Origin: a virus
Lineage: Duplodnaviria > Heunggongvirae > Uroviricota > Caudoviricetes
Direction: 5' to 3' (one strand)
Length of the DNA stretch: 44,845 nucleotides
IMG/VR virus record: IMGVR_UViG_3300045988_181891
Numbering within the stretch: position 1 is the stretch's first letter; every line of letters starts with the position of its first letter. The translations under genes were made by a program, and so were the position numbers. Under the pieces are notes generated by a model. The model saw only the letters and a program-made list of their open reading frames with translations, had not been told where the DNA came from and did not search any database. Positions 1,213 through 30,731 of this stretch are shown here, in pieces.

Positions 1213-1288
1213 CGCGGCGTGGAGCAGTTGGTAGCTCGCCAGGCTCATAACCTGGAGGTCGCATGTTCGAGTCTTGCCGCCGCAACCA
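1213..1288 (+). tRNA. tRNA-Met: tRNA-Met (anticodon CAT), initiator-type
   Basis: 76-nt cloverleaf folded by hand: acceptor CGCGGCG/CGCCGCA with C1-A72 mismatch, U8, D-loop AGTTGGTA, anticodon loop CTCATAA, T-loop TTCGAGT, encoded CCA; near-identical in layout to E. coli tRNA-fMet. Confidence 0.85.
1270..1286 (+). repeat. attL core, 17-bp direct repeat AGTCTTGCCGCCGCAAC within the tRNA 3' end
   Basis: Identical 17-mer at 44538..44554; imperfect similarity continues for about 55 bp downstream of both copies (atcgggta..aacattct..atccgatt). Confidence 0.8.
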
Positions 1289-1404
1289 ATATCGGGTAAG
1301 AAGTTGGAAACAACATTCTTATCCGATTTTCCGTTTTGGGGAGGGACGGAAGCGAAATACTTTATTGTTGAATATCATTGGCTGGCAACGGACAATGAAA
1401 AAAA

Positions 1405-2568
1405 ATGACTGCAAAAGAAATTGATTTTTTGAGCTCGCGTGAAATAGTAGGTTTCACGCTGCCTGTGTTGCATACCAAGGGCGGTTACTGGTATGTTGAC
1501 TTTACTGCCTTTGACCCTGTTTCGGGTCGGATGAAGCGCAAGAAATATATGCTTAATAGGTACAAGACTGACCACAAGAAGCGTATGATGGGTACCTTGC
1601 TTATCCACAATATCACGGCAAAATTGACCGCTGGATGGAATCCTTGGGTGAATGCCGACAAGTCGAGACAATTCACCGAAATACCAATTATCTTTAGTCG
1701 TTATCGTGATTATATTAAGTCGATGACCGACAAAAAGTCGATGAAGGAAAAGACCTCTATCGACTACCTCAGCCGCCTCAAGACTCTGGAGTCTTTCATC
1801 ACTGAGTGCAAGAGTGTCAAATATGCCTATCAGATTGACCGTGCCTTCGCCATCGACTTCTTAGACCACCTGATGTATGACCGTGATGTGAGTGCTACCA
1901 CAAGAAACAACTATCGCTCTTGGCTTGTCTCCTTCGGCACTTGGCTTATGGATAGAAAATATATCAGCGAGAACCCTGCCATCGACATCAGAAACATCGC
2001 TCAGAAGGAGAAGTTCAGAGACCCTTTGACCGAGGGCGCGCTTAAGAAGCTGAAGACTTATCTCTATGATAACAACAGACATTTTCTCTTGGCTTGCCTC
2101 TTTGAATATTATACCTTTATCCGACCGAATGAGTTGACGCAGATAAGAATCAAAGATGTGTCGATTGCTGACCAGACGGTCTTTATCAGTTCTGCCATCA
2201 GCAAGAACCGTAAGGACGGACTTGTGGCATTGAACGATGAAATCTTGAAGCTCATGATAGAGCAGAAGATATTTGAGCATCCGGGACATTGTTTTATCTT
2301 TGGCAAGGGGTTGAAGCCTGGTGAGGAGCGAGCACCTTATAACCAACTGAGAGTAGAGTGGGGCAAGATGCGAGATGCTATTGGGTTTCCGAAGGAGTAT
2401 CAGTTTTATAGCCTGAAGGACACTGGCATCAGGGATTTGGCGAACGCACAGGGTATCGTGGTCGCCAAGGATCAGGCACGCCACTCTGATATATCTGTGA
2501 CGAATCGATATATCAAGAACCAGATGAAAGTGAACGAGGAGACCAAGCACTTCAAAGGTGGGCTTTAG
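1405..2568 (+). CDS. int: Tyrosine recombinase (phage integrase), Bacteroidota-type with N-terminal arm-binding domain
   Basis: ATG at 1405; C-terminal catalytic region HxxR...Y (ARHSDISVTNRYI); position directly beside the tRNA attachment site. Confidence 0.9.
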   Translation: MTAKEIDFLSSREIVGFTLPVLHTKGGYWYVDFTAFDPVSGRMKRKKYMLNRYKTDHKKRMMGTLLIHNITAKLTAGWNPWVNADKSRQFTEIPIIFSRYRDYIKSMTDKKSMKEKTSIDYLSRLKTLESFITECKSVKYAYQIDRAFAIDFLDHLMYDRDVSATTRNNYRSWLVSFGTWLMDRKYISENPAIDIRNIAQKEKFRDPLTEGALKKLKTYLYDNNRHFLLACLFEYYTFIRPNELTQIRIKDVSIADQTVFISSAISKNRKDGLVALNDEILKLMIEQKIFEHPGHCFIFGKGLKPGEERAPYNQLRVEWGKMRDAIGFPKEYQFYSLKDTGIRDLANAQGIVVAKDQARHSDISVTNRYIKNQMKVNEETKHFKGGL

Positions 2569-2632: not shown

Positions 2633-4524
2633 ATCATATAAAAATATCCTGTATAGATAGGCTCAATCTGGTCATCCTTGACCTCCATCTCTATTTTTTC
2701 GCATACGAATTTTTTGTTGTGTATGATGTATGTGTGAGATGGGTCAGGGATGGTATCAGATTGAAATTTTACCTGAAGGCAGTTTTTGTTGTCTATCTTG
2801 AGACCGCTGTCGTGGAGCTCACCCAAACAGGTTCCTGCTTGCCAAGCCTTGTTTAGGGATAGGGAAGCCATCAGAACGGTTGGAAACGTGCCAATATTGC
2901 CAGGATCGAGCAACTCCATCCTATACATGGAATTGATGCGGCTGTCAGTCATGAACTGCGGCCATCTGGACTTCTCCCCTACCCATGAGACGTTGCCATT
3001 GAGTGGGTGTTCGTATTTTTGAACTTTGCCAGGCACTATGAAAAACACATTCATGCACTCCTGGTCATCCTCGGAATCATCCAAGGTGGACTCATCATCG
3101 ATGGCATCCTGTATGGAGACGTAGTTGTAGCCATCCTCGTCTGTGTCGCTCTCTTTGGCTTCGGCTTCTTTGTCGTTTGGCATAGACAGGAGGCAGCGCC
3201 ATTCGCTGTGTTTACCCTCAAAAAGAAAAGACCTAAAGCTAACATTTTCCACGACCTGTGCTGCTGGGGATATGTTGAGGTCTGTGTAATCATCGGAGGA
3301 GTTATCCCTTATCAGTGGCGACCAGACACCAGCCAACTGCCAGCTCTTGTTGCCGTCGGTATCCTCGACATATATATAATAATCGCTGCCCAGATGACGG
3401 ATGATGGTGGTGCGCTTCTTCTTCTCGGACCATCCACTGGTAGTGGCAGGAAACTGAAAGTTGGTACCAACGGCTGTCTCGAACGAATCGACTATATCGA
3501 AATTATCAAAAACTTTTTTGGGAATGACTTCGTAATCACCTCTGTTGGCTGAGTCGCCTAAGTTGTACTGCAGGTTGGCTGTCGATGAGGTTGAGAACGA
3601 ACCATCGGCATCGTAGTCGGTGGTGTACTCGTCGAGTGTCTCTATCTCTACGGAGTCGGCGGATGATAGCTCTGAGGACTTGATGACCTGACAAGTCTTT
3701 TTGATGTCGTCGAAGTATATGGTGGCGTTGAAGAGCTTGCGGAACTCCTCGATGAAGGTGTAGCTAGTCCAATGAGGAAGGGCACGGCGAAGCTCTAGGG
3801 TCTTGAAGGCGGAGGCGATGTAGAGCAAGTTCCATGGAGAAACATCGAGGTCGTTGCGTGTGAGGGTGTAGCCCTCGTAGGCGATGACTCGCTTGAAGAT
3901 GTACATCAGGTTGGGCTGCACGGCGACGTTGCTGATGTATGGATCTTTGCTGCCTATGAAATTGCCCGTGCGGTCAACGCCCACGAAATTGGCTATCATG
4001 TCGTTGGTCTCGTCTCTGACTGGCATGAAGCACCACTTGCCCTGCTCGCCCAGAAACTTGCTCTGGTCGGCGACGAGCCTATAGACGGATTGAACCTTGG
4101 GGATGTTTTTCCAGCCCTGTGAAAAACCTTTATCTACCGTATAGCCTGGTGCGGATGCCTTGCCGAAGTCTATCTCGTCGATGTAGTGCTTGGTCATCTT
4201 GTCGTTGAACTTGATGCGAGACTTGCCGCCCACTATCTGAAGCTTTATCTCAGAGTCGGTGACGCTGATGATGGTACCCACGCCAGAGAGTACCAGGCGA
4301 CCGCTCACGTAAAGCTTGCAATCGTTGTAGGTCTGGGTGGATTTGGAGACATCGAAGCGGCTCACGTTGTGGAAAACTCGGCGGTTGGGCATTATTGCCA
4401 TGGGGAAATTGATGTCGTAGGAGTATTCGCCATCGTCGGTGACGTATTGGTTGGCGTATGTGAGCTTGATGGATTGGCTGGCAGCCGGATAGGCTGCCAT
4501 GCCATTGATGATGCATGTTATCAT
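2626..4524 (-). CDS. Phage tail protein directly downstream of the tape measure gene (candidate distal tail or receptor-binding protein)
   Basis: 632-aa ORF with ATG at 4524, 33 nt after the TMP stop; call by gene order only. Confidence 0.5.
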   Translation of the reverse strand: MITCIINGMAAYPAASQSIKLTYANQYVTDDGEYSYDINFPMAIMPNRRVFHNVSRFDVSKSTQTYNDCKLYVSGRLVLSGVGTIISVTDSEIKLQIVGGKSRIKFNDKMTKHYIDEIDFGKASAPGYTVDKGFSQGWKNIPKVQSVYRLVADQSKFLGEQGKWCFMPVRDETNDMIANFVGVDRTGNFIGSKDPYISNVAVQPNLMYIFKRVIAYEGYTLTRNDLDVSPWNLLYIASAFKTLELRRALPHWTSYTFIEEFRKLFNATIYFDDIKKTCQVIKSSELSSADSVEIETLDEYTTDYDADGSFSTSSTANLQYNLGDSANRGDYEVIPKKVFDNFDIVDSFETAVGTNFQFPATTSGWSEKKKRTTIIRHLGSDYYIYVEDTDGNKSWQLAGVWSPLIRDNSSDDYTDLNISPAAQVVENVSFRSFLFEGKHSEWRCLLSMPNDKEAEAKESDTDEDGYNYVSIQDAIDDESTLDDSEDDQECMNVFFIVPGKVQKYEHPLNGNVSWVGEKSRWPQFMTDSRINSMYRMELLDPGNIGTFPTVLMASLSLNKAWQAGTCLGELHDSGLKIDNKNCLQVKFQSDTIPDPSHTYIIHNKKFVCEKIEMEVKDDQIEPIYTGYFYMMS

Positions 4525-8950: not shown

Positions 8951-8991
8951 AATAAAAATACGAGACCGTATGTATTGCGGTCTCGTATTTA
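8951..8991 (-). terminator. Rho-independent terminator (minus strand)
   Basis: Perfect 13-bp inverted repeat AAATACGAGACCG / CGGTCTCGTATTT with 9-nt loop, followed on the minus strand by TTTTTATT. Confidence 0.6.
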
Positions 8992-9330
8992 CTTGGTTAT
9001 CTCTTGCTCTTTTTTAAAGAACTCGTATGCAAGATTGTTTGCATCCCAAACAAGATATTTCTTGTTGGTGTTTCTGAGTGTCTGTTTATCACCTGTTATG
9101 GAGTTTGCTATCGTGACGCAGAAGAATCTGCCTCGCTTTACGATTTCGGTTGCCGTATTGTTTGGCGATGCCAGTCTTATAGGCTCGTCAAAATTCTCAT
9201 CAAAAGTATCAAACAATGGTTCGGAAGCCACTGTGGCTGGGCAAGAACTATTGCCAAGCTTGTCGAGACCTTTGAGGAGTGCAACTGTTATAATCGCTAG
9301 TATCCAGCATCCAAATATAGTCGTAATCAT
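8989..9330 (-). CDS. Small membrane-anchored hypothetical protein
   Basis: ATG at 9330 sits 22 nt downstream of a TAaaTTTG box; N-terminal hydrophobic helix; the longer ORF-track start at 9528 runs through AT-rich intergenic DNA. Confidence 0.5.
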   Translation of the reverse strand: MITTIFGCWILAIITVALLKGLDKLGNSSCPATVASEPLFDTFDENFDEPIRLASPNNTATEIVKRGRFFCVTIANSITGDKQTLRNTNKKYLVWDANNLAYEFFKKEQEITK

Positions 9331-9359
9331 AATTTGTAAGTTTATTATTATCTTTGTTG

Positions 9360-9367
9360 CAAATTTA
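9360..9367 (-). promoter_or_regulatory. -7 promoter box TAaaTTTG (minus strand)
   Basis: Plus strand reads caaattta. Confidence 0.4.
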
Positions 9368-9552
9368 ATAATAATATTTGGAATATGCAAGTATTTTGTG
9401 TTAAATCTTTGATTTGTTTTGCGGTATGGTGGAAAAATATTATATTTGCAGTGGCAATTTAATTTTAGAAAGTATGAATAAAGATTTTGCTTTAATATTG
9501 GTAAACATAATATGCGCCTTAACGGCATTTGTTTGTATGATAATCACTATTG

Positions 9553-11159: not shown

Positions 11160-11400
11160 TATTTTGCTTGTTATGATTGAACAATTTGTTTTTGATGTTG
11201 TCGAACTTGGCATCGATGGCGATGGCTACGCCGAAGATGGAGCCGGCATACATGAGCGACTGGGCAAAGTACCAGAGCACATTGTCGGTGACATCACGAG
11301 CCTGGGAGGTGAAGTAACTGATGTAAACCAGTATGATGGCGAGGAGGAGCACGGCGATGGCTGAGCCGTATTGTATCCATTCTTTAGTATTTCTCTGCAT
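11146..11400 (-). CDS. Holin-like small membrane protein
   Basis: 84 aa from ATG at 11400 with two hydrophobic helices; immediately upstream of and overlapping the amidase gene; ORF-track start 11430 is TTG. Confidence 0.55.
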   Translation of the reverse strand: MQRNTKEWIQYGSAIAVLLLAIILVYISYFTSQARDVTDNVLWYFAQSLMYAGSIFGVAIAIDAKFDNIKNKLFNHNKQNNETD

Positions 11401-11427
11401 GGTGAATCTTGTTTTTGTTTTACAGTG

Positions 11428-11435
11428 CAAAGATA
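11428..11435 (-). promoter_or_regulatory. -7 promoter box TAtcTTTG (minus strand) for the lysis cassette
   Basis: Plus strand reads caaagata; about 25 nt upstream of the holin ATG. Confidence 0.45.
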
Positions 11436-11449
11436 AGAAGGGTAGGGTG

Positions 11450-11487
11450 ATAATAAAAATACGAGACCGCCCTAACGATCTCGTATT
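11450..11487 (-). terminator. Rho-independent terminator (minus strand)
   Basis: 9-bp stem AATACGAGA / TCTCGTATT with 12-nt loop, followed on the minus strand by TTTTTATTAT. Confidence 0.5.
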
Positions 11488-11500
11488 ATATGTTTAACTG

Positions 11501-11908
11501 TTAGACCTCTCTTGAGAGAATCTCCTTGGCTATCTCTTTGGCCTCTTTGCGCCACGACTGATAAGCCTCGAACTCTGCCTCGTGAGTCTCGTCGCCATCG
11601 CCACGGTTGGCTAGGATGGCCTCTACCTGGTTTTGGCTGTATCGGGTGCGAACCAAACCAGCGGTGAAATCGTCGTAGGTGGCTGCGGTCGCCTGAATCT
11701 TGGTCGAGCCATCAGGCTCTGTGCCCTCATAGCTGTAAGCAGTGACACCCTCGGAGTTTTCATCTTCTGACTGCTCTGAGGTATCGGAAGAGCCTGTAGC
11801 GGCCTCAGGGTGATAGTTTTCAACTTTCTGCTCACCAGTGTAGAGCAGATAATGGTTATCGTCATATTTGACGAAGCTCTTGCGAGCTAGATAATACTTC
11901 TTGTTCAT
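11501..11908 (-). CDS. Hypothetical acidic protein downstream of the DGR RT gene
   Basis: ATG at 11908; 135 aa; no recognisable motif. Confidence 0.55.
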   Translation of the reverse strand: MNKKYYLARKSFVKYDDNHYLLYTGEQKVENYHPEAATGSSDTSEQSEDENSEGVTAYSYEGTEPDGSTKIQATAATYDDFTAGLVRTRYSQNQVEAILANRGDGDETHEAEFEAYQSWRKEAKEIAKEILSREV

Positions 11909-11914
11909 AATTGA

Positions 11915-13558
11915 TCACGTGAATTTATAGAACTTCTTTTTGAATTTATTGTGAAGCTCTGCGACCACGGTGGAGAAGGGTAGCTCATCACGACAGAAGT
12001 CGTTGAGGGCTTGGTCTATCAAGATCTTGGAGCCTGTATAGAGGTAGTGCTCCAGAGGTTGCCATACCTCGGTGCCGTCTGGCTCCAGGTGGTCGATGAT
12101 GCGATAGCGTAGGGAGAGGCGCTTCTTGGGCACCTCTTTGGTGACCATGTGGGTGGAGCCGTCCGGGGCGGTCTCCTCTTGCTGGATGGTCTCCTTCTCT
12201 ATCACCGAGTCATCGACCTTGTAGTCTATCACTTGAACGAGGAACTTGTTCTCGTCCTGACCCTCACGGCAGATGATGTCCTCGATGGACTGCTGCTGTG
12301 ATTTCTCCATACCGTCAAAAGGCACGCGCGCACGGCGAGCCTTGACGAGTTTACCGAATCTTTCCATACCGATTTTCTTATATAAGTTTTTAGAGTTTGC
12401 GTGGATGCCCAGACCTAGGCGAGAGGCTGCCTTGAGCTGTATCTGGCGGTCTGTGAAGCCCGCCTTGCGTAAGTTGGCGATCTGTCTGCAGAGGTCGTGC
12501 TTGAACCGCTTGCGCAACAGGGCGTGGTCGGCGTAGATGATCTGACCGCATAAGTCGATGCCATCGCAGGTGCGGTGGATACCCCAAGACTTATTGATGG
12601 ATAGGTGCCAGTCACGGGCGAGGTGCATCACGGCAAGCTCTGCCATCAGCCTGAGGAACACCTTATCCTCGTGGAGGATGTAGATGTTGTCCATGAAGCG
12701 GTAATAATGGCGAAGACCTTGGCGGCAGAAGCGCTCGAACCTATCGTTGAGCGACTTCACTCCCCCGCATAGCAGTTGAGCTTGCTGCTGAGTGCGACAG
12801 GTAACGAGCATGTCGCTCACGTAGCGAGCCTGCCAGTAACGGAACTTGTCGGTGTCTTGGAGAATGTCGAAGCATCGGAGTGCCAGGTAATCGAAGCGGG
12901 CGAGGAAGAGCTGACCCAAGAGTTGGGCGAGCTTGACGCCGAGCACGATGCCTGGATTGAAGCTATCGACCACCTCGTCGATGAAGGCGAGGAGCTTGCG
13001 GTCTTTGATCTTGCGGCGATATTCACTTTTGAGAAGAGCGTGGTCTATGCTCTGAAAATAATGGTGAATATCCATGGGCAAGCAGTAGAAGGTATCTTGC
13101 TGTGGCGAGTTGAAGATGTCTCGCTTGACAAGATTATAGAAATAATGGGTGCCCTTGCCCTTGGAACCAGCCGGACTGTGGCTGTAGAGTGTCTTGCGAA
13201 GGTTATCCTCTACAGGTTGCAGGGCAGCGTGCTGGATGACGTGGTCGATAACGGGCAGCTTGTTGACTTGGCGATGTTTTGGATAGTCGATATCTTTGGC
13301 GACATAGGCTGAGGTATGCCAAGTTTGTTGGGTGTAAGCATCGAGCATGCGTCCGATGTTATGGTCTAGGTTTGCCTCGAATTTTTGGACCGCACGGCGA
13401 GACATCTTTTGTCGGGCGTAGTCATAGAATGCCCGACGAAAGTTGTCTAGTGTCTCGACCTGTAGCGATATGTTGCCAAACCTTTTCATAAGCGGTGTAA
13501 TGTCTGTGTTGAACGGTGTATAAACTGTGTATAGTCTGAATCGTCTGCTTTTGTACAC
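11915..13558 (-). CDS. DGR reverse transcriptase-like protein with non-canonical motif C
   Basis: RT motifs recognised by eye: HVIQHAALQPV, SPAGSKGKGTHY, LPMDIHHYFQSIDH, GVKLAQLLGQLFL; sits just downstream of the template repeat; ORF-track start 13558 is GTG, first in-frame ATG is at 13489. Confidence 0.8.
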   Translation of the reverse strand: MYKSRRFRLYTVYTPFNTDITPLMKRFGNISLQVETLDNFRRAFYDYARQKMSRRAVQKFEANLDHNIGRMLDAYTQQTWHTSAYVAKDIDYPKHRQVNKLPVIDHVIQHAALQPVEDNLRKTLYSHSPAGSKGKGTHYFYNLVKRDIFNSPQQDTFYCLPMDIHHYFQSIDHALLKSEYRRKIKDRKLLAFIDEVVDSFNPGIVLGVKLAQLLGQLFLARFDYLALRCFDILQDTDKFRYWQARYVSDMLVTCRTQQQAQLLCGGVKSLNDRFERFCRQGLRHYYRFMDNIYILHEDKVFLRLMAELAVMHLARDWHLSINKSWGIHRTCDGIDLCGQIIYADHALLRKRFKHDLCRQIANLRKAGFTDRQIQLKAASRLGLGIHANSKNLYKKIGMERFGKLVKARRARVPFDGMEKSQQQSIEDIICREGQDENKFLVQVIDYKVDDSVIEKETIQQEETAPDGSTHMVTKEVPKKRLSLRYRIIDHLEPDGTEVWQPLEHYLYTGSKILIDQALNDFCRDELPFSTVVAELHNKFKKKFYKFT

Positions 13559-13697
13559 TTGATAACCTTCGACCGGATGACCGTGTTGTCATCATCTACC
13601 AGCTGTCTTATTAATGTGTATGTATCGCCATGGGGCGAGGATTGACCCTGTAATCTCGAAGTGGGAGCAAACGACCCACGAAGAGATATGTCTGTAA

Positions 13698-13819
13698 GTT
13701 GAGGGCGGCGCCGTAGTTCACATTGGCATTCGAGACAGCATTGTTCACGTTGAGCGTTGAAAGACCGCATTGACCACCATTGTTAGCGTTAGCACCACGA
13801 AGGCAGACACGAAAACCGG
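13698..13819 (-). repeat. DGR template repeat (TR), non-coding
   Basis: 122 bp matching 14109..14230 with 10 mismatches, all at TR adenines (plus-strand T); the ORF 13611..13832 is a translation of the TR, not a gene. Confidence 0.9.
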
Positions 13820-13853
13820 CACCTAGGGTCACACCCTGGTATCATAACCGCCG

Positions 13854-13861
13854 CAAAGGTA
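13854..13861 (-). promoter_or_regulatory. -7 promoter box TAccTTTG (minus strand) directly upstream of the TR
   Basis: Plus strand reads caaaggta, about 35 nt upstream of the TR. Confidence 0.45.
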
Positions 13862-14057
13862 ATAAAAATAATCGGTATGGAAGCATGTCAAAGAGCTTTT
13901 TTGATGTTTTTATTGATATTTTTTTTGTCGCCGACCGCCACAGGCGGTAACTTAAGGCGAGCTACGCTCGCTGGGTGCTTCGGCTTCGCCGAGGGTGCTC
14001 AGGTCTCTTTTGCACACCCAGTAAACCGATGCACACCCAGCAAACTGATGTAGTCTC

Positions 14058-15530
14058 TTAGGCCGCCTCGTAATACACGGGTTCAACGGACCACTCGGAT
14101 GCTGCTTCGCAGAGGGCGGCGCCGTAGTTCACATCGGCAATCGAGACAGCACTGCTCACGTCGAGCGTTGAAAGACCGCATCGACCACCAAGGTTAGCGT
14201 TAGCACCACGAAGGCAGACACGAAAACCGGATGTAGCACCAGACGTATTCCAGAAATAGCTAGTCCAGTAGGTTGACTCGGATGCGCCCGTAGCGGTCGG
14301 GAAGTTCTCTAGATGCTCCATCGAGAGCGTCTTGATATAGCCTTCGCCCTTGGTCGGCGAGGTGCTGTAAGCCACCATGCCATCGGTGGAACCTATCGTC
14401 CACGTGCCGTAGATGGACGGTGCCACGAGATGGGTCACGGAAGTGTCCTCGTTGCAACGCACCTGCTCGTCATCCATGTGTCGCCACAATAAGCCGAAGC
14501 CATTTTTGTAGCCGAAGAAGGATGGTATCTTGGCGGTATAGACCACGGTGCCATCGTCTTTTTTGACCTCGTAGCTCGCCTCGCCGCAAGCGTCGCCAAG
14601 CTCGATGCCAGCCGACATCGGCACGACAGGGCGATAGCCGTTGTAACCACCCCAATCAGGCATCTGTGTCACGCCAGCGCCGAGACCACCCTGGTAGAGA
14701 CCGTTGGCATCTTTTTGGCTGTTGACGGCATCCTGGTCGTAGTGGGTGCCGAAGATGACCCCGAAGAGCACGGAGATGGCAGAGGTGTGGCGCATGGTGG
14801 TGCAGAGCCAGCCTGTGCCGTTTTTGCGGGCAGCAGCACGCCAGTATTCGGTAGTCTGGTTGGTGGCAGCCTTGCCCAGCATGGTGCGGTTGGTGTTATC
14901 TAACGTGGAGTCGTTGTTGCCGCCTCGGTAGTTTGTGCCCTCGTTGATGTAGCTCACCAGCTTGCCTGTGCTGCGCTCTAGCGTGGCGAAGCCAGCGGCG
15001 GAGATGCTGCCCACAGGTATCTTGTAATTGTACTCGCCTGGTATCGGCGTAGGGCTGACCATCTCGTAATGGAGTCTGCCCACGGTCTTGATGACCATGT
15101 ACCACTCCTTGCCCCAGCCCCACTGGTAGTGCCCCTCTGAGCCATCGAGCTTGGCTGTCTCGCCGGTGGCATACTTGTGGTGGTCTTTGGAGTCGAGCTT
15201 GCGACGGGAGTGGTCATTCTTGACCAGATAACAGCCCAGACCCAGCTCCGTTGGTAGGGTCTGCAGTAACTCTAGCGAGCCCACATAAGTGGCGGCTTTA
15301 GGGGTTGCATTGTCGAGGTTCCACACTCGACCACACCAAGGATGCTGTCCCATTTGGACGGCGCTTTTGAGCGACATCTGCTCAGACCTGCCGGATTTTT
15401 TGTCGAAGACCTCGACAATCTTGTCAGTGGCGCTCATGTCTGACTGTGGGAGGTCGTCAACCTGTTGACCTCCATCGAAAGCGGCTATGATAGCCTTGAG
15501 CTTACTCTCTTCTTCTGATGTTAATGCCAT
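14058..15530 (-). CDS. DGR target protein, putative receptor-binding structural protein with C-terminal variable region
   Basis: 490 aa from ATG at 15530 (ORF-track start 15578 is TTG); VR occupies the C-terminus; GFRVCLRG segment resembles the C-type-lectin/FGE-like fold of known DGR targets. Confidence 0.8.
   Translation of the reverse strand: MALTSEEESKLKAIIAAFDGGQQVDDLPQSDMSATDKIVEVFDKKSGRSEQMSLKSAVQMGQHPWCGRVWNLDNATPKAATYVGSLELLQTLPTELGLGCYLVKNDHSRRKLDSKDHHKYATGETAKLDGSEGHYQWGWGKEWYMVIKTVGRLHYEMVSPTPIPGEYNYKIPVGSISAAGFATLERSTGKLVSYINEGTNYRGGNNDSTLDNTNRTMLGKAATNQTTEYWRAAARKNGTGWLCTTMRHTSAISVLFGVIFGTHYDQDAVNSQKDANGLYQGGLGAGVTQMPDWGGYNGYRPVVPMSAGIELGDACGEASYEVKKDDGTVVYTAKIPSFFGYKNGFGLLWRHMDDEQVRCNEDTSVTHLVAPSIYGTWTIGSTDGMVAYSTSPTKGEGYIKTLSMEHLENFPTATGASESTYWTSYFWNTSGATSGFRVCLRGANANLGGRCGLSTLDVSSAVSIADVNYGAALCEAASEWSVEPVYYEAA
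14109..14230 (-). repeat. DGR variable repeat (VR) inside the 3' end of the target gene
   Basis: 122-bp copy of the TR; encodes ...GFRVCLRGANANLGGRCGLSTLDVSSAVSIADVNYGAAL..., ending 17 codons before the stop at 14058. Confidence 0.9.
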
Positions 15531-21285: not shown

Positions 21286-21293
21286 CAAAGATA
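21286..21293 (-). promoter_or_regulatory. -7 promoter box TAtcTTTG (minus strand) for the fibre-like gene
   Basis: Plus strand reads caaagata, 17 nt upstream of the ATG. Confidence 0.45.
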
Positions 21294-21321
21294 GGTATGA
21301 TGAGAACTATATAAAAATACG

Positions 21322-21780
21322 CTAGATCGGTGTGCCGAACATCTGCTTGAAGATGTCTGCCATCAGTCCCTGGTACTCATCGCCATAGAAGTAGCCCTCC
21401 ATGTCGTTGAGCTTCATGATGGAGGCGTAGTACTTGCGATTGAACCATGGACGGCGCTGTCGTGGCTCGCCGAGGTTGTGCTTGGCACGGTACTCAGGGT
21501 CGAGGAACTCTAGGTCGCCGGGGTTGCCATGGTAATAGCCATTGCCTGTGCCCGTCTCTTGGTAGAGACCGTAGAGCAGGAACTTGTGGGCTATCTGGCG
21601 AGAGGAACCGCCAAAGGATGTGGCTTGGACAGAGCTGAAGAGGGCACCGGTATGTCGGATGCGATAGTGGATGATTTTCTCTTTCCAGATATGCACCATC
21701 TCCTCTGCCCATCCTCGCTCGTAGGCGTAGATGTCCTCTTGTGAGACGGGTTGCTTGATGTCATTCGTTCCATTCCTCAT
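21322..21780 (-). CDS. Hypothetical structural protein
   Basis: ATG at 21780; 152 aa. Confidence 0.5.
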   Translation of the reverse strand: MRNGTNDIKQPVSQEDIYAYERGWAEEMVHIWKEKIIHYRIRHTGALFSSVQATSFGGSSRQIAHKFLLYGLYQETGTGNGYYHGNPGDLEFLDPEYRAKHNLGEPRQRRPWFNRKYYASIMKLNDMEGYFYGDEYQGLMADIFKQMFGTPI

Positions 21781-26648: not shown

Positions 26649-26656
26649 CAAAGATA
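26649..26656 (-). promoter_or_regulatory. -7 promoter box TAtcTTTG (minus strand)
   Basis: Plus strand reads caaagata, about 24 nt upstream of the ATG at 26625. Confidence 0.45.
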
Positions 26657-26667
26657 GGAAGGAAGGG

Positions 26668-26710
26668 GAGAAAATAAAAATACCTGATTGTCATCACGAC
26701 AACCAGGTAT
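26668..26710 (-). terminator. Rho-independent terminator (minus strand)
   Basis: 12-bp stem ATACCTGATTGT / ACAACCAGGTAT (one mismatch), 7-nt loop, followed on the minus strand by TTTTTATTTTCTCC. Confidence 0.45.
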
Positions 26711-28021: not shown

Positions 28022-28414
28022 TTATTTTTGGAAATAAACTTTTAAAGGGATTGAATTCTCCACATTGCCAATTTTGAAAGAGAACTGATAGTTGCCCTCT
28101 GCAGGGAACTGGAGGTCGGAGAACTCAAAGATGAAGTTGCTGAAGAGAAACTCATCTGAAGGGTGTGGCTCAATCTTGGAATTGATGGGCTGGCCAAGAA
28201 TCATCTTGCCAGTGCTCATCTCTGTAACCTCTGCCGAGAACTCTTGCTGAAGTTTGCTTTCCTCGCTGTTCATCTTAACTCTCGCTACCATGAAGAGGTT
28301 GTTCTTAGGCAGCGGTGCTTTTCTTACCACATAGTGGTCAAAAGTGCCCACGATGGTAAGTTTGCCGTCATTATCTTGTGCAAAGTCACACAATGCAAGA
28401 ATATCTATGTTCAT
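28022..28414 (-). CDS. Hypothetical protein, accessory cassette gene 3
   Basis: ATG at 28414; 130 aa; locally AT-rich. Confidence 0.5.
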   Translation of the reverse strand: MNIDILALCDFAQDNDGKLTIVGTFDHYVVRKAPLPKNNLFMVARVKMNSEESKLQQEFSAEVTEMSTGKMILGQPINSKIEPHPSDEFLFSNFIFEFSDLQFPAEGNYQFSFKIGNVENSIPLKVYFQK

Positions 28415-28851
28415 TTTATATGTCCTTTAATGTTAGACTCGATAGCCGAGTGTTTGAAAAGTTTTTTATAATTGTCGAATGAATATTTGAGTTTGCTCAC
28501 CGTGCGCTTGTTTGTGCTCACTAGGTTGGCTCCATGTCTGCCAGAGATGCCTTCCTTGGTATTGAACTTCAGAGAATTTCTTTTGGAGTCAACCCAAAGC
28601 CTGATGGCATCGCCTTGTATCTTGTCACCCACATTGCCATGGACGTTGAGATCTTCTCGTATTTTCTTGTCCTCTTCGTTGAGCTCAAGAGCTTCGGTGA
28701 TTTCTACGGAACTATTTCGGTCTAGTTCGTATAATGTCATCTTTTTGCCCGTGATAGGTTCCTCTTTGAGTCCCTTCCACTCAGCCCTTCTGGCAATGAC
28801 ATCAGCTTTTTTGCCCTCTATGATTTCACCTTCTTTGATATATATAGCCAT
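28411..28851 (-). CDS. Hypothetical protein, accessory cassette gene 2
   Basis: ATG at 28851; 146 aa; 4-nt start/stop overlap with the downstream gene. Confidence 0.5.
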   Translation of the reverse strand: MAIYIKEGEIIEGKKADVIARRAEWKGLKEEPITGKKMTLYELDRNSSVEITEALELNEEDKKIREDLNVHGNVGDKIQGDAIRLWVDSKRNSLKFNTKEGISGRHGANLVSTNKRTVSKLKYSFDNYKKLFKHSAIESNIKGHIK

Positions 28852-29507: not shown

Positions 29508-30191
29508 TTATAGCTTTCCTTTGTCGTGGTAGCTGTAGAAGCCATCCTCAGCCAAGATGATATGGTCCATCAAGAAAAGTCTCATCACCTCGCACGCCTT
29601 GGCTATCTTCTGCGTGAGCATATCGTCCGCCTTGCTCGGCTGCGTGCTGTTCGATGGGTGGTTGTGTGCCACGGCGATGATGGTTGCATTGTTGAGCACG
29701 GCTTCTTTCATTATCAGTCGAACGTCCACCGCTGTCTCGGTGATGCCTCCCTCGCTGAGCTTGGTGCACTTTATCAGCCTAAAGTTTTGGTTCATCAGCA
29801 CTACCCAAAAGCCCTCTGTCTCATTGCAGCCTATCATTGGGCGAAGATAGTTGTAGAGTGCCAGGCTGCTGCCTAGGTCGGTGTTTCTCGCTACCTTTTC
29901 CATTTGGTAGCGTCTGCCTAGCTCGATGGCTGCCTGTAGGGCTATCGCCTTGCAGTCTCCAATTCCTGGTACCACTTCCAGGTCTTCTATTCTCGCCTTG
30001 CCGATGTTGCGAAGCGAGTTGCCCATGATGTTATAAATCTGTCGTGCCTGCTCTTGGCTGTCCTTGGTACCTGCCCCTCTGTTGATTACCAAAGAAATCA
30101 AGTCAACGTTGGTAAGGGTGTCGAAACCTTGGTTATAGGCTCTGTACTGCGGTCTCTCCTCCATACAAAGATTGTTATAATTTTGTCTCAT
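29508..30191 (-). CDS. radC: RadC-like JAB/MPN domain protein
   Basis: Signature AHNHPSNSTQPSKADDMLTQ (HNHPSG..PS..D motif) and N-terminal helix-hairpin-helix segment VPGIGDCKAIALQAAIELGRR. Confidence 0.75.
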   Translation of the reverse strand: MRQNYNNLCMEERPQYRAYNQGFDTLTNVDLISLVINRGAGTKDSQEQARQIYNIMGNSLRNIGKARIEDLEVVPGIGDCKAIALQAAIELGRRYQMEKVARNTDLGSSLALYNYLRPMIGCNETEGFWVVLMNQNFRLIKCTKLSEGGITETAVDVRLIMKEAVLNNATIIAVAHNHPSNSTQPSKADDMLTQKIAKACEVMRLFLMDHIILAEDGFYSYHDKGKL

Positions 30192-30206: not shown

Positions 30207-30731
30207 TTAGTTATACATTCTCTTTGTTCTCGCTAGGAACATCGCTCCCATCACTTGTGCGCCACATTCGGCTAGCTCGTTGGCGAACTCTCGGGCGGTC
30301 GCTCCGCTCGTCACCACGTCGTCGAAGATGATGACTTTCTTTCCGCTGAAGTACTCTCTATCGAGTGCCACTCTGTAGTCGAAGCTCTCACACACTCTGT
30401 CTGTGCTGAAGTGCTTGGCTGTGCGCTCTCCATAGATGGAAATGTGCTCGTTTCCGTTCTGTACCTTTGCGCCTTGGCTCACCTTTTGGGCGAAGCGAGA
30501 AAAGCGCTTGGTGTACTTCTTTGAGTTGGCTGCTGGAGCGCAAACCATCACGAAGTCGCTGGCTTTGTCGCCATAGGTGTTGACGAAAGAGCTGACCACC
30601 ATATCGGCAGCTGCGTCTGTCGCCCACTGCTTTCCATCCTTGAAGGCAAAGATGAAGTTTCTCACTTGCTCTGCTTGTGCTGAGCGGTCGAAACGCTTGG
30701 AGCTGTACTCGTAATAATTGAAAGTTTTCAT
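30207..30731 (-). CDS. Phosphoribosyltransferase-domain protein (ComF-like PRTase)
   Basis: PRPP-binding motif KKVIIFDDVVTSGATAREFANEL near the C-terminus; ATG at 30731. Confidence 0.6.
   Translation of the reverse strand: MKTFNYYEYSSKRFDRSAQAEQVRNFIFAFKDGKQWATDAAADMVVSSFVNTYGDKASDFVMVCAPAANSKKYTKRFSRFAQKVSQGAKVQNGNEHISIYGERTAKHFSTDRVCESFDYRVALDREYFSGKKVIIFDDVVTSGATAREFANELAECGAQVMGAMFLARTKRMYN

Follow-up and report, generated by a model that had tools for sequence, protein, structure and literature searches.

All mechanistic knowledge of diversity-generating retroelements (DGRs) comes from the element of the Bordetella phage BPP-1, which depends on the accessory variability determinant Avd and is organized as mtd-VR / avd / TR / Sp / brt, VR and TR being the variable and template repeats, Sp the spacer and brt the gene of the reverse transcriptase (RT), bRT. 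The roles of Avd, a small basic protein of ~110-130 aa that folds as a four-helix bundle (Avd/23S-IVP family), comprise binding of the RNA and support of the RT, and no avd-less DGR has been dissected so far. In BPP-1, cis-primed reverse transcription (cPRT) requires, and is terminated by, a structure designated cPRT Stop, which is made of an 11-bp avd:Sp duplex with one unpaired U, a short stem-loop and adenosines establishing A-minor contacts, and in the same work such duplexes were predicted only among Avd-containing DGRs (bioRxiv 10.1101/2023.10.23.563531). On the target side, the published hairpin/cruciform has a GC-rich stem of 7-10 bp and a 4-nt GRNA loop, and lies 4-34 bp downstream of the VR (Guo 2011, PMC3240598). 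Cassettes devoid of avd nevertheless represent about a quarter of the catalogued DGRs and must work differently; among them are Architecture A ("TR-RT"), Architecture E with the acidic gene CH1, which is found only in avd-less DGRs of Bacteroides relatives, and Lineage 3/3a, which is avd-less and found "only in Bacteroides species and relatives" (Wu et al. 2018, PMC5758913). The present analysis concerns a DGR without detectable Avd carried by the IMG/VR virus record IMGVR_UViG_3300045988_181891 (Caudoviricetes). The whole stretch of 44,845 nucleotides (44.8 kb) is called the window; all coordinates refer to it and all features of the DGR lie on its minus strand.

Within the window, the interval 13820..14108, situated between the two repeats, is probably the control region of an Avd-less DGR. 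It would hold the 3' end of the target gene, a structured 3' element and a sigma-ABfr promoter for a molecule acting as DGR RNA and mRNA, the TR being copied in a self-primed manner and additions to the RT presumably replacing Avd. The element is a DGR, as evidenced by adenine-specific differences between TR and VR, by an RT of the DGR clade and by an RNA duplex that brackets the TR. Its core features are:

15530..14058, minus strand: DGR target gene encoding a 490-aa tail protein, with the VR near the 3' end (open reading frame (ORF) and translation; PHROG 5302 "tail protein", E 6.8e-57).
14230..14112, minus strand: VR of 119 nt, ending 51 nt before the stop codon in the GC-rich GGCGCCGCCCTC, which resembles an initiation of mutagenic homing (IMH) sequence (ungapped alignment to the TR).
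13819..13701, minus strand: TR of 119 nt with 23 adenines (alignment to the VR).
13489..11915, minus strand: DGR RT of 524 aa (PHROG 1423, E 7.8e-52).

The target gene ends with a stop codon at 14060..14058 and a Pfam scan of its product gave no match. VR and TR are offset by 411 nt and differ by eight mismatches, all eight at TR adenines and all in codon position 1 or 2 of the VR, with the TR possibly extending to 13699, that is, over two more adenines that are different in the VR.

The relatives used for comparison consisted of 79 IMG/VR viral contigs (RT 57-100% identical) and 49 Bacteroidales genome loci (RT 33-88% identical), the latter from Segatella, Prevotella, Phocaeicola, Bacteroides cellulosilyticus, Lepagella, Duncaniella and Rikenellaceae. 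About 120 related loci in Bacteroidales prophages, with RTs 33-100% identical, present one common module: the target gene, two to three GC-rich hairpins, a CTCTTTGAC box, a TAnnTTTG -7 box, a short leader, the TR, a structured spacer of about 200 nt (Rfam RT-17), an RT of 510-550 aa and a small acidic ORF. The nearest genomic relatives belong to Segatella copri (RT identity 87-88%) and the host context, as judged from sequence, is that of a Segatella (Prevotella) copri-type prophage. Alignment A1 comprises the VR-to-TR spacers of 16 representative relatives; alignment A6, made with MAFFT and not fitted to structure, comprises 17 loci and extends from the predicted start site as far as the beginning of the RT gene. 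Further subsets comprised 58 unique IMG/VR spacers (close relatives), 38 well-resolved genome loci and about 95 unique spacers overall.

Across this family, 740/752 mismatches in 70 IMG/VR loci and 505/509 in the 38 genome loci fell on TR adenines, figures that are slightly inflated because the VR/TR finder penalized non-A mismatches more heavily. The same 70 IMG/VR loci carried 68 distinct VRs versus 30 distinct TRs. Since the differences concentrate at TR adenines and distinct VRs so outnumber the TRs, the DGR family is evidently active.

The RT had no match to Pfam RVT_1 at E<0.5 and its identity rests, for that reason, on PHROGs, on a PDB profile search and on a fold search. The RT family profile matched bRT (8UB7_A) with E 2.5e-35, group II intron RTs coming far behind (2.9e-10), and 8UB7_A was also the best PDB match found by Foldseek (E 2.6e-15) for the AlphaFold model, which had a predicted local distance difference test score (pLDDT) of 85.6. 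Motif C of this RT reads R-F-M-D-N (residues 264-268; 12702..12688, minus strand), whereas that of bRT is R-Y-M-D-D. In 30 family members that are 35-92% identical the motif is R-F-x-D-N, with D267 invariant and N268 nearly so, DD occurring in a single member. An RT with this natural xDN active site appears to be functional, given the abundant adenine-specific VR diversification of the family. Compared with bRT (328 aa), the RT family has two extra elements: a stretch of about 55 aa, helical, inserted between motifs B and C (residues ~205-258; 12880..12715, minus strand), and a conserved C-terminal domain of about 150 aa with very long beta-strands (residues ~377-524; 12410..11915, minus strand). 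The annotated phage DGR RTs of the GenBank phage collection, from crAss-like and other phages, share only about 25-29% identity with this RT across its first ~370 residues and do not have the C-terminal domain; in that collection, no annotated genome encoded an RT of this family and the single match was the unannotated fragment MT835875.

An earlier reading of the window (hereafter the original prediction) had seen no Avd-like ORF between the target stop codon and the TR, which proved correct, no conserved ORF being present from the target stop to the RT start. The six-frame search for Avd that it proposed was run on 11333..14086, where Pfam identified nothing Avd-like among 22 ORFs of at least 40 aa. 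In the 49 non-overlapping ORFs of the whole window, Pfam (E<=0.5) revealed no Avd and NCBIfam nothing Avd-like better than E ~0.008; PF05635 or TIGR02436-type models matched neither these 49 ORFs nor the 22 of the cassette, and the small basic ORFs of the window gave no Avd-like match in PHROGs. A 94-aa ORF overlapping the TR and the spacer (13770..13486) was considered as a hidden Avd and discarded; it has no Pfam match and is kept only in the closest clade of the window. In about 110 related loci the VR-to-TR spacer, counted with the final ~50 nt of the target gene, is only 203-378 nt long. That about 120 related loci across many genera keep the same Avd-free cassette is stronger evidence than the ORF scans of the window, and a DGR without detectable Avd is thereby supported at the level of sequence. 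This absence is not unusual in itself, because Avd-less DGRs of Bacteroides relatives are already catalogued as a class (Wu 2018, PMC5758913).

It seems very improbable that an Avd is used after all, whether one too divergent for the available profiles or one provided in trans by the host chromosome or another prophage. Such a supply would have a precedent in the avd-TR-brt segment of BPP-1, which works in trans, and the window does carry two unannotated small basic ORFs, at 28851..28411 (146 aa, pI 9.4) and 9528..8989. The first of these, however, has no PHROG match and no Avd-like PDB match, and the second, compared with PHROGs only, has no match there either. Besides the conservation of the Avd-free cassette, a profile search of avd-less DGR genomes by Wu et al. 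found no Avd (PMC5758913), and the RT family possesses conserved extra domains that bRT lacks.

The TR-RT unit seems to have a promoter of its own. The -7 consensus of sigma-ABfr is TAnnTTTG, and its -33 motif was reported as weak or absent in other Bacteroidetes (PMC7366714). Two conserved boxes precede the TR:

13861..13854, minus strand: sigma-ABfr -7 box TACCTTTG (motif match and conservation; consensus per PMC7366714).
13895..13887, minus strand: conserved upstream box CTCTTTGAC, its TTTG 27 nt upstream of the -7 box (invariant in A1).

The first one had been pointed out in the original prediction and is indeed found at that place. TAnnTTTG occurs 53 times in the window versus 20.1 +/- 4.3 in shuffles, a 2.6-fold over-representation; its intergenic minus-strand copies lie just upstream of gene starts, and the motif precedes also the tRNA-Met gene and many phage genes of the window. 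The -7 box is kept in 58/58 unique IMG/VR spacers, with variation at the free positions only. In A1, CTCTTTGAC-N27-TAnCTTTG is the best conserved non-coding segment, one of the free -7 positions being variable, and in the distant genome loci both free positions vary (TAACTTTG, TATATTTG, TAAATTTG, TAATTTTG, TACTTTTG) with retention of the T, the A and TTTG. Among the 38 well-resolved genome loci, most have the box 34-54 nt ahead of the TR. This pattern of conservation is the one that would be expected of a working sigma-ABfr -7 element, from which transcription is predicted to start at ~13848..13844 (about 13846).

The independent TR-RT transcript suggested in the original prediction gains support from the conserved -7 box. 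It does not gain support from a canonical -33 element: no TTTG was found about 18-20 nt upstream of the -7 box, where the window reads cTTCc and many relatives TTTC. The TTTG of CTCTTTGAC lies about 9 nt further upstream than a canonical -33 element, approximately one helical turn too far, and the box may serve as a binding site for a regulator. TTTGAC is present 28-32 nt upstream of the -7 box in about 26 genome loci. CTCTTTGAC shows no variation among close relatives; many distant ones carry (C/T)TCTTTGA, and the distance to the -7 box is always 27-32 nt. Other operon boundaries of the phage (8934..8970, 11435..11487, 21293..21330 and 26656..26690, minus strand) are built differently, with a hairpin and a T-run ending in GTATTTTTAT followed about 20 nt later by a TAtCTTTG box; these boundaries look like a set of late promoters, unlike the context of the TR promoter.

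If the promoter were not used, the TR-RT RNA would be made only by read-through from the late tail operon, and TAnnTTTG/CTCTTTGAC would be kept as a protein-binding site or as part of an RNA structure. This seems quite unlikely, in spite of the non-canonical -33 region and of the lack of a U-run after the last hairpin preceding the promoter in the window (see below), since variation of the box over about 95 unique loci is confined to the two "n" positions of TAnnTTTG and the same motif stands before the tRNA gene and other phage genes. A structural role could be seen in the RNAalifold pairing of the invariant post-VR TGCGAAG with CTTTGCA of the -7 box, but all columns involved are invariant, so that the pairing provides no evidence of covariation, is uninformative and is probably coincidental. 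Five related contigs in which the target is fused to the TR and the promoter is missing would also fit transcription by read-through, but they look like the result of repeat collapse, by assembly or recombination. These are 5/79 related contigs (L016, L035, L038, L051 and L076; about 3620..3800), where the target runs straight into a single repeat, with spacer and RT behind it, and where nothing is left of the VR 3' flank, the hairpins or the promoter; they look like VR/TR repeat collapse in assembly or real deletions by VR-TR recombination, a functional variant being less likely.

Contrary to the original prediction, the TR is not followed directly by the RT gene, as a structured non-coding spacer of 211 nt (13700..13490) intervenes. 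The coordinates given in that account proved correct, but it was incomplete in that it left out the RT-17 motif of this spacer, the duplex bracketing the TR, the acidic ORF after the RT and the extra domains of the RT. The elements of the RNA are:

13837..13825, minus strand: leader strand of the duplex (AGGGUgUGACCCU), ending 5 nt before the TR (RNAalifold on A6 and pair counts).
13687..13653, minus strand: stem-loop just 3' of the TR (AUCUC..GUGGG-loop-CCCAC..GAGAU) with the conserved loop motif GUUUGCU (minimum free energy (MFE) and centroid structures).
13649..13638, minus strand: spacer strand of the duplex (AGGGUCAAUCCU) (RNAalifold on A6 and pair counts).
13642..13541, minus strand: Rfam RF03020 RT-17 motif (59.9 bits versus a gathering score of 40.4; full model, 1-95).

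The leader and spacer strands form a duplex of 12 bp with one bulged base, in which 8/12 pairs are changed on both sides and 96.4% of the cells are paired. When counted over 16 pairs, 97.3% of the cells are paired versus 26-53% with slid partners, 10/16 pairs are changed on both sides, and 0/500 shuffles equalled the result; this support is limited to RTs above ~49% identity, as bulges leave the contiguous-helix test powerless in the distant genome loci. The duplex replaces a local leader hairpin (AGGGU-GUG-ACCCU) that had been considered, and explains the covariation in clades where the local hairpin would be of 3 bp only. The RT-17 motif occupies the same position in 12/17 relatives (48.9-77.3 bits). 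Its first hairpin (13637..13626, CGCC-CCAU-GGCG, with a 4-bp stem) abuts the duplex and is followed by an A-rich run, and the stem 3' of the TR is present in relatives too, with different sequence. From the position of the promoter, the predicted RNA would start a few nucleotides before the 5' strand of the duplex. This arrangement of leader:spacer duplex, stem-loop and adenosines matches the layout of cPRT Stop, an architecture that, from the alignments, is kept without Avd. An Rfam CRISPR-DR9 match at 13622..13646 was well below threshold and attributed to chance. Between RT-17 and the RT start (13490..13540, minus strand; about 3925..4000 in L039) repeated ACACCG/ACACAG motifs were observed (TACACCGACAT, three to five times, in some clades).

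Turning to the region upstream of the promoter, the three GC-rich hairpins announced by the original prediction are all present, together with a long helix, here termed P0, and with two other sequence elements:

14111..14102, minus strand: VR-specific 10-mer TGCGAAGCAG immediately 3' of the VR (invariant columns 1-10 of A1, 16/16; also in locus L080).
14045..14011, minus strand: tandem direct repeat GTTTGCTGGGTGTGCA / GTTTACTGGGTGTGCA just past the stop codon, present in the clade of the window only (sequence and MFE structure).
14042..13969, minus strand: long helix P0, in which 14042..14033 (TGCTGGGTGT) pairs with 13978..13969 (GCACCCAGCG), enclosing H1 (complementarity and compensatory changes).
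13991..13981, minus strand: hairpin H1 (CGGC-GAA-GCCG), with 84.5% of cells paired and two pairs changed on both sides.
13971..13957, minus strand: hairpin H2 (GCGAGC-GTA-GCTCGC), with three pairs changed on both sides.
13948..13934, minus strand: hairpin H3 (ACCGCC-TGT-GGCGGT), 100% paired, with one A-U/U-A swap.

Folding of the region past the stop codon, as had been suggested, was done as RNA on 14057..13920 (138 nt) and gave -62.5 kcal/mol (z = -5.3), with 0/200 shuffles as stable. In A1, 92.8% of the hairpin cells are paired versus 31-41% with slid 3' partners, six pairs are changed on both sides, and the covariation score of 0.208, versus 0.071, was reached by 0/500 shuffles. The two central pairs of H2 are flipped (GCGAGC/GCTCGC to GCTCGC/GCGAGC) in the L039/L048 clade and broken in the L036/L059/L071 clade. 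P0 connects the segment directly behind the stop codon with the conserved GAGCACCC box. Its best complementary stretch reaches 8-12 bp in several clades, a length attained by <=1.7% of shuffles, and its flanks are compensatory (CCGGGTGCTC/GAGCACCCGG in L039, CGAGGGTGC/GCACCCTCG in L040). In the L042/L048 clade the helix is missing or degraded, and in L036/L059 it carries bulges. The contiguous-helix test chose a wrong GCACCC box in the L026 clade and missed the bulged helices of L036/L059. The direct repeat corresponds to 16 nt (GTTT[G/A]CTGGGTGTGCA) present twice with a period of 19, each copy being the 5' strand of a long helix and complementary to one of two downstream GCACCC boxes.

Regarding function, the hairpins and P0 would first of all be a structured 3' end or terminator insulating the TR-RT unit, and in second place a lineage-specific homing element, the two roles not being mutually exclusive. 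The original prediction had drawn attention to the fact that structured elements 3' of the VR can influence DGR homing, and it is conceivable, although doubtful, that the cluster is primarily a cis target-site element of the DGR (a counterpart of the BPP-1 hairpin/cruciform or an RNA recognition element) that directs or enhances cDNA integration into the VR, no terminator being involved. Inverted repeats are found "nearly always" downstream of VRs in DGRs and are needed for BPP-1 homing (PMC3240598). In the family studied here, two to four GC-rich hairpins occur at this place in 79% of 95 unique loci, with RTs down to ~35% identity, and the mean of 2.05 per unique spacer (at least two in those 79%) is 12-fold that of control windows from the same locus (0.17). 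The window as a whole contains seven perfect GC-rich hairpins of 6 bp, two of them here, 9 nt apart, which form its only intergenic pair of this type, the other terminators of the phage being AT-richer and provided with T-runs. In addition, only 4/38 diverse genome loci have a T-run after the cluster and for this reason "terminator" cannot be its whole story.

However, the hairpins do not conform to the published homing element, as their stems are of 4-6 bp, their loops of 3 nt (GAA, GTA, TGT) and their starts at 120, 140 and 163 nt from the VR end; family-wide, 147 loops are of 3 nt and GRNA is found in 12/34 four-nt loops. P0 holds G-U pairs, which fit a sense-strand RNA rather than a DNA cruciform, and a canonical T-run (at least six T, typically 8-9) follows H3 in 26/58 unique close relatives. 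Moreover, target gene, RT and hairpins are co-inherited, meaning that conservation cannot tell an element of the tail gene from one of the DGR. As to the window itself, the absence of a T-run after the hairpins that the original prediction reported was verified: H3 is followed by CGGCGAC and A8 (13926..13919), an A-run taking the place of the T-run in the clade of the window, the terminator scan was silent, and of the features of a rho-independent terminator the stem-loop is present and the U-run absent.

Next to the VR, TGCGAAGCAG is invariant at the DNA level in the 16/16 representatives and in L080 (51% RT identity), even though adjoining codons have drifted. Combined with the final base of the VR, it yields the mini-palindrome CTGC-GAA-GCAG, and it may be an IMH-equivalent or a target-recognition sequence.

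The distal end of the unit is formed by two further features:

11908..11501, minus strand: ORF135 (135 aa, pI 4.6 (4.63)), starting 6 nt past the RT stop, a candidate DGR accessory gene (synteny).
11487..11458, minus strand: canonical hairpin and T-run terminator closing the TR-RT-ORF135 unit (terminator scan).

ORF135 is next to the RT in 79/80 oriented loci (78 IMG/VR and the window), has homologues of 122-139 aa and pI 4.2-5.8 in 44/49 genome loci, and is found also in relatives with 38-51% RT identity whose next gene differs. It gave no match to protein families, PDB or folds. The next promoter, TAtcTTTG, lies at 11435..11428 (minus strand), after the terminator. Since the -7 box stands upstream, and a canonical terminator and the next promoter come after ORF135, we infer a transcription unit composed of leader, TR, spacer, RT and ORF135.

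In summary, the preferred reading, that of an inter-repeat control region of an Avd-less DGR, may be put as a sequence of steps. The interval would begin with the final 51 nt of the tail-protein target gene, followed by a structured element of about 110 nt in the 3' untranslated region (P0 enclosing H1, then H2 and H3) that would mark and insulate the end of the late tail transcript, most likely as a terminator or RNA 3'-end structure. The clade of the window would have lost the U-run, termination there being probably leaky. The sigma-ABfr promoter (TACCTTTG) would then start, at ~13846, a separate transcript that is DGR RNA and mRNA in one (leader, TR, spacer, RT and ORF135) and that would end at 11487..11458. 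In this RNA, the leader (13837..13825) would pair with the spacer (13649..13638) and bracket the TR, so that the RT would most likely self-prime from the spacer, copy the TR with adenine-specific errors and halt at the duplex, the cDNA then replacing the VR. The roles of Avd would presumably be taken by the RT insertion and C-terminal domain, and possibly by ORF135.

Some observations weigh against this arrangement. Besides the non-canonical -33 region and the scarcity of T-runs among the diverse genome loci, the lack of a U-run at H3 makes read-through from the target gene plausible in the window. Avd proteins are poorly conserved (Wu 2018, PMC5758913) and, because of this, a very divergent one, or one encoded by the host and acting in trans, could escape searches with hidden Markov models (HMMs). 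ORF135, in turn, is acidic, its poor model (pLDDT 57) does not show a helical bundle with confidence, and synteny is what makes it a candidate for a role in the DGR. A bolder version of the scheme would combine truly Avd-independent retrohoming, with the FxDN RT, its insertion and C-terminal domain, and possibly ORF135, replacing the Avd pentamer on the RT-17 RNA, with a P0-H1-H2-H3 array that is a lineage-specific homing signal, RNA-level or transcription-coupled, and more than a terminator; in this combined form it is unlikely.

As for the surroundings of the DGR, the locus lies in a prophage where a tRNA-Met gene (1213..1288) adjoins a tyrosine integrase (1405..2568, plus strand), and the tRNA directly upstream of the integrase (1213..2568, plus strand) marks a probable prophage attachment end. 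A RadC-like JAB protein (Pfam E 5e-34) is encoded beside a ComF/phosphoribosyltransferase-like protein (29508..30191 and 30207..30731, minus strand). The possibility that the element belongs to hankyphage or another annotated phage was discarded, the nucleotide search of GenBank phages having returned only one unannotated 16-kb fragment (78%).

When compared with the BPP-1 DGR, the locus shares a VR at the 3' end of a tail receptor-binding gene with the TR downstream on the same strand, adenine-specific mutagenesis, and a GC-rich 3' end common to VR and TR where the homology stops (IMH/IMH*-like). Common to both are also a TR-bracketing duplex of ~12 bp with one unpaired base, followed by a short stem-loop and adenosines, and an RT that is closest to bRT in sequence and fold. 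It differs from BPP-1 in that avd is absent and the 5' strand of the duplex, which in BPP-1 is inside avd, resides in a leader of ~25 nt behind a dedicated promoter. The spacer RNA is RT-17 instead of RT-10, and the RT has 524 aa against 328 aa, with the ~55-aa insertion and the ~150-aa C-terminal domain in addition and with FMDN instead of YMDD in motif C. Furthermore, 51 nt separate the VR from the stop codon, and an acidic ORF lies behind the RT. The hairpins stand 120-163 nt from the VR end with 3-nt loops, whereas BPP-1 has one hairpin with a GRNA loop at ~4 bp.

With regard to the RNA, only RT-10 was assigned to a DGR (the BPP-1 TR-RT spacer) by Weinberg et al. 2017, the other RT motifs being speculated to belong to DGRs or retrons (PMC5737381). 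The spacer described here has a full-length, above-threshold match to RT-17 (Rfam RF03020, Weinberg et al. 2017) and lies upstream of an RT gene, as in the published motif; unlike in that description, it is placed in a DGR spacer, and its unpaired 5' end contributes one strand to a long-range duplex that lies outside the Rfam model. The junction between target gene and TR resembles the usual phage operon boundary (rho-independent terminator and sigma-ABfr promoter) in having GC-rich hairpins after the stop codon and TAnnTTTG within ~70 nt, and departs from it by A8 in place of the T-run and by three hairpins with a long enclosing helix versus one hairpin, the other terminators of this phage being single.

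The locus also resembles the Avd-less DGRs of Wu 2018, which likewise have no avd, HRDC or MSL, a TR-RT core with the target immediately upstream, and hosts from Bacteroidales only. A small acidic ORF flanks the core in both (pI 4.6 here versus 4.7 +/- 0.2 for CH1), although CH1 has 160-169 aa and ORF135 with its homologues 122-139 aa, a comparison made by description only. The C-terminal extension of the RT is likewise present in ~20% of DGR RTs. The main text of that study (PMC5758913) makes no mention of the promoter, the hairpin cluster, the assignment to RT-17, the duplex around the TR or the FxDN motif, and no earlier description was found of a conserved dedicated promoter, of the hairpin cluster with P0, of RT-17 as a DGR spacer RNA, of a duplex similar to cPRT Stop in an Avd-less DGR or of the FxDN motif. 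The DGRs of hankyphage, of the Bacuni phages and of crAssphage LMMB similarly diversify tail proteins of gut Bacteroidales phages but, unlike the present one, encode Avd (PMC12135933; PMC8143477).

The comparison gives the locus and its ~120 relatives a particular value, as they form a compact and delimited Avd-free module (promoter, leader, TR, RT-17 spacer, long RT and acidic ORF) that is evidently active in prophages of human-gut Segatella/Prevotella and other Bacteroidales. The maintenance of a cPRT Stop architecture without Avd narrows what the substitute of Avd must do, the orphan Rfam motif RT-17 gains a functional context, and the module offers testable constructs for reconstitution and for smaller DGR-based diversification tools. 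Set beside the systems already described, the locus is a clean specimen for the question of Avd-independent retrohoming rather than a surprise: it does not overturn the current understanding, and is a well-resolved member of the known but mechanistically unexplored Avd-less class.

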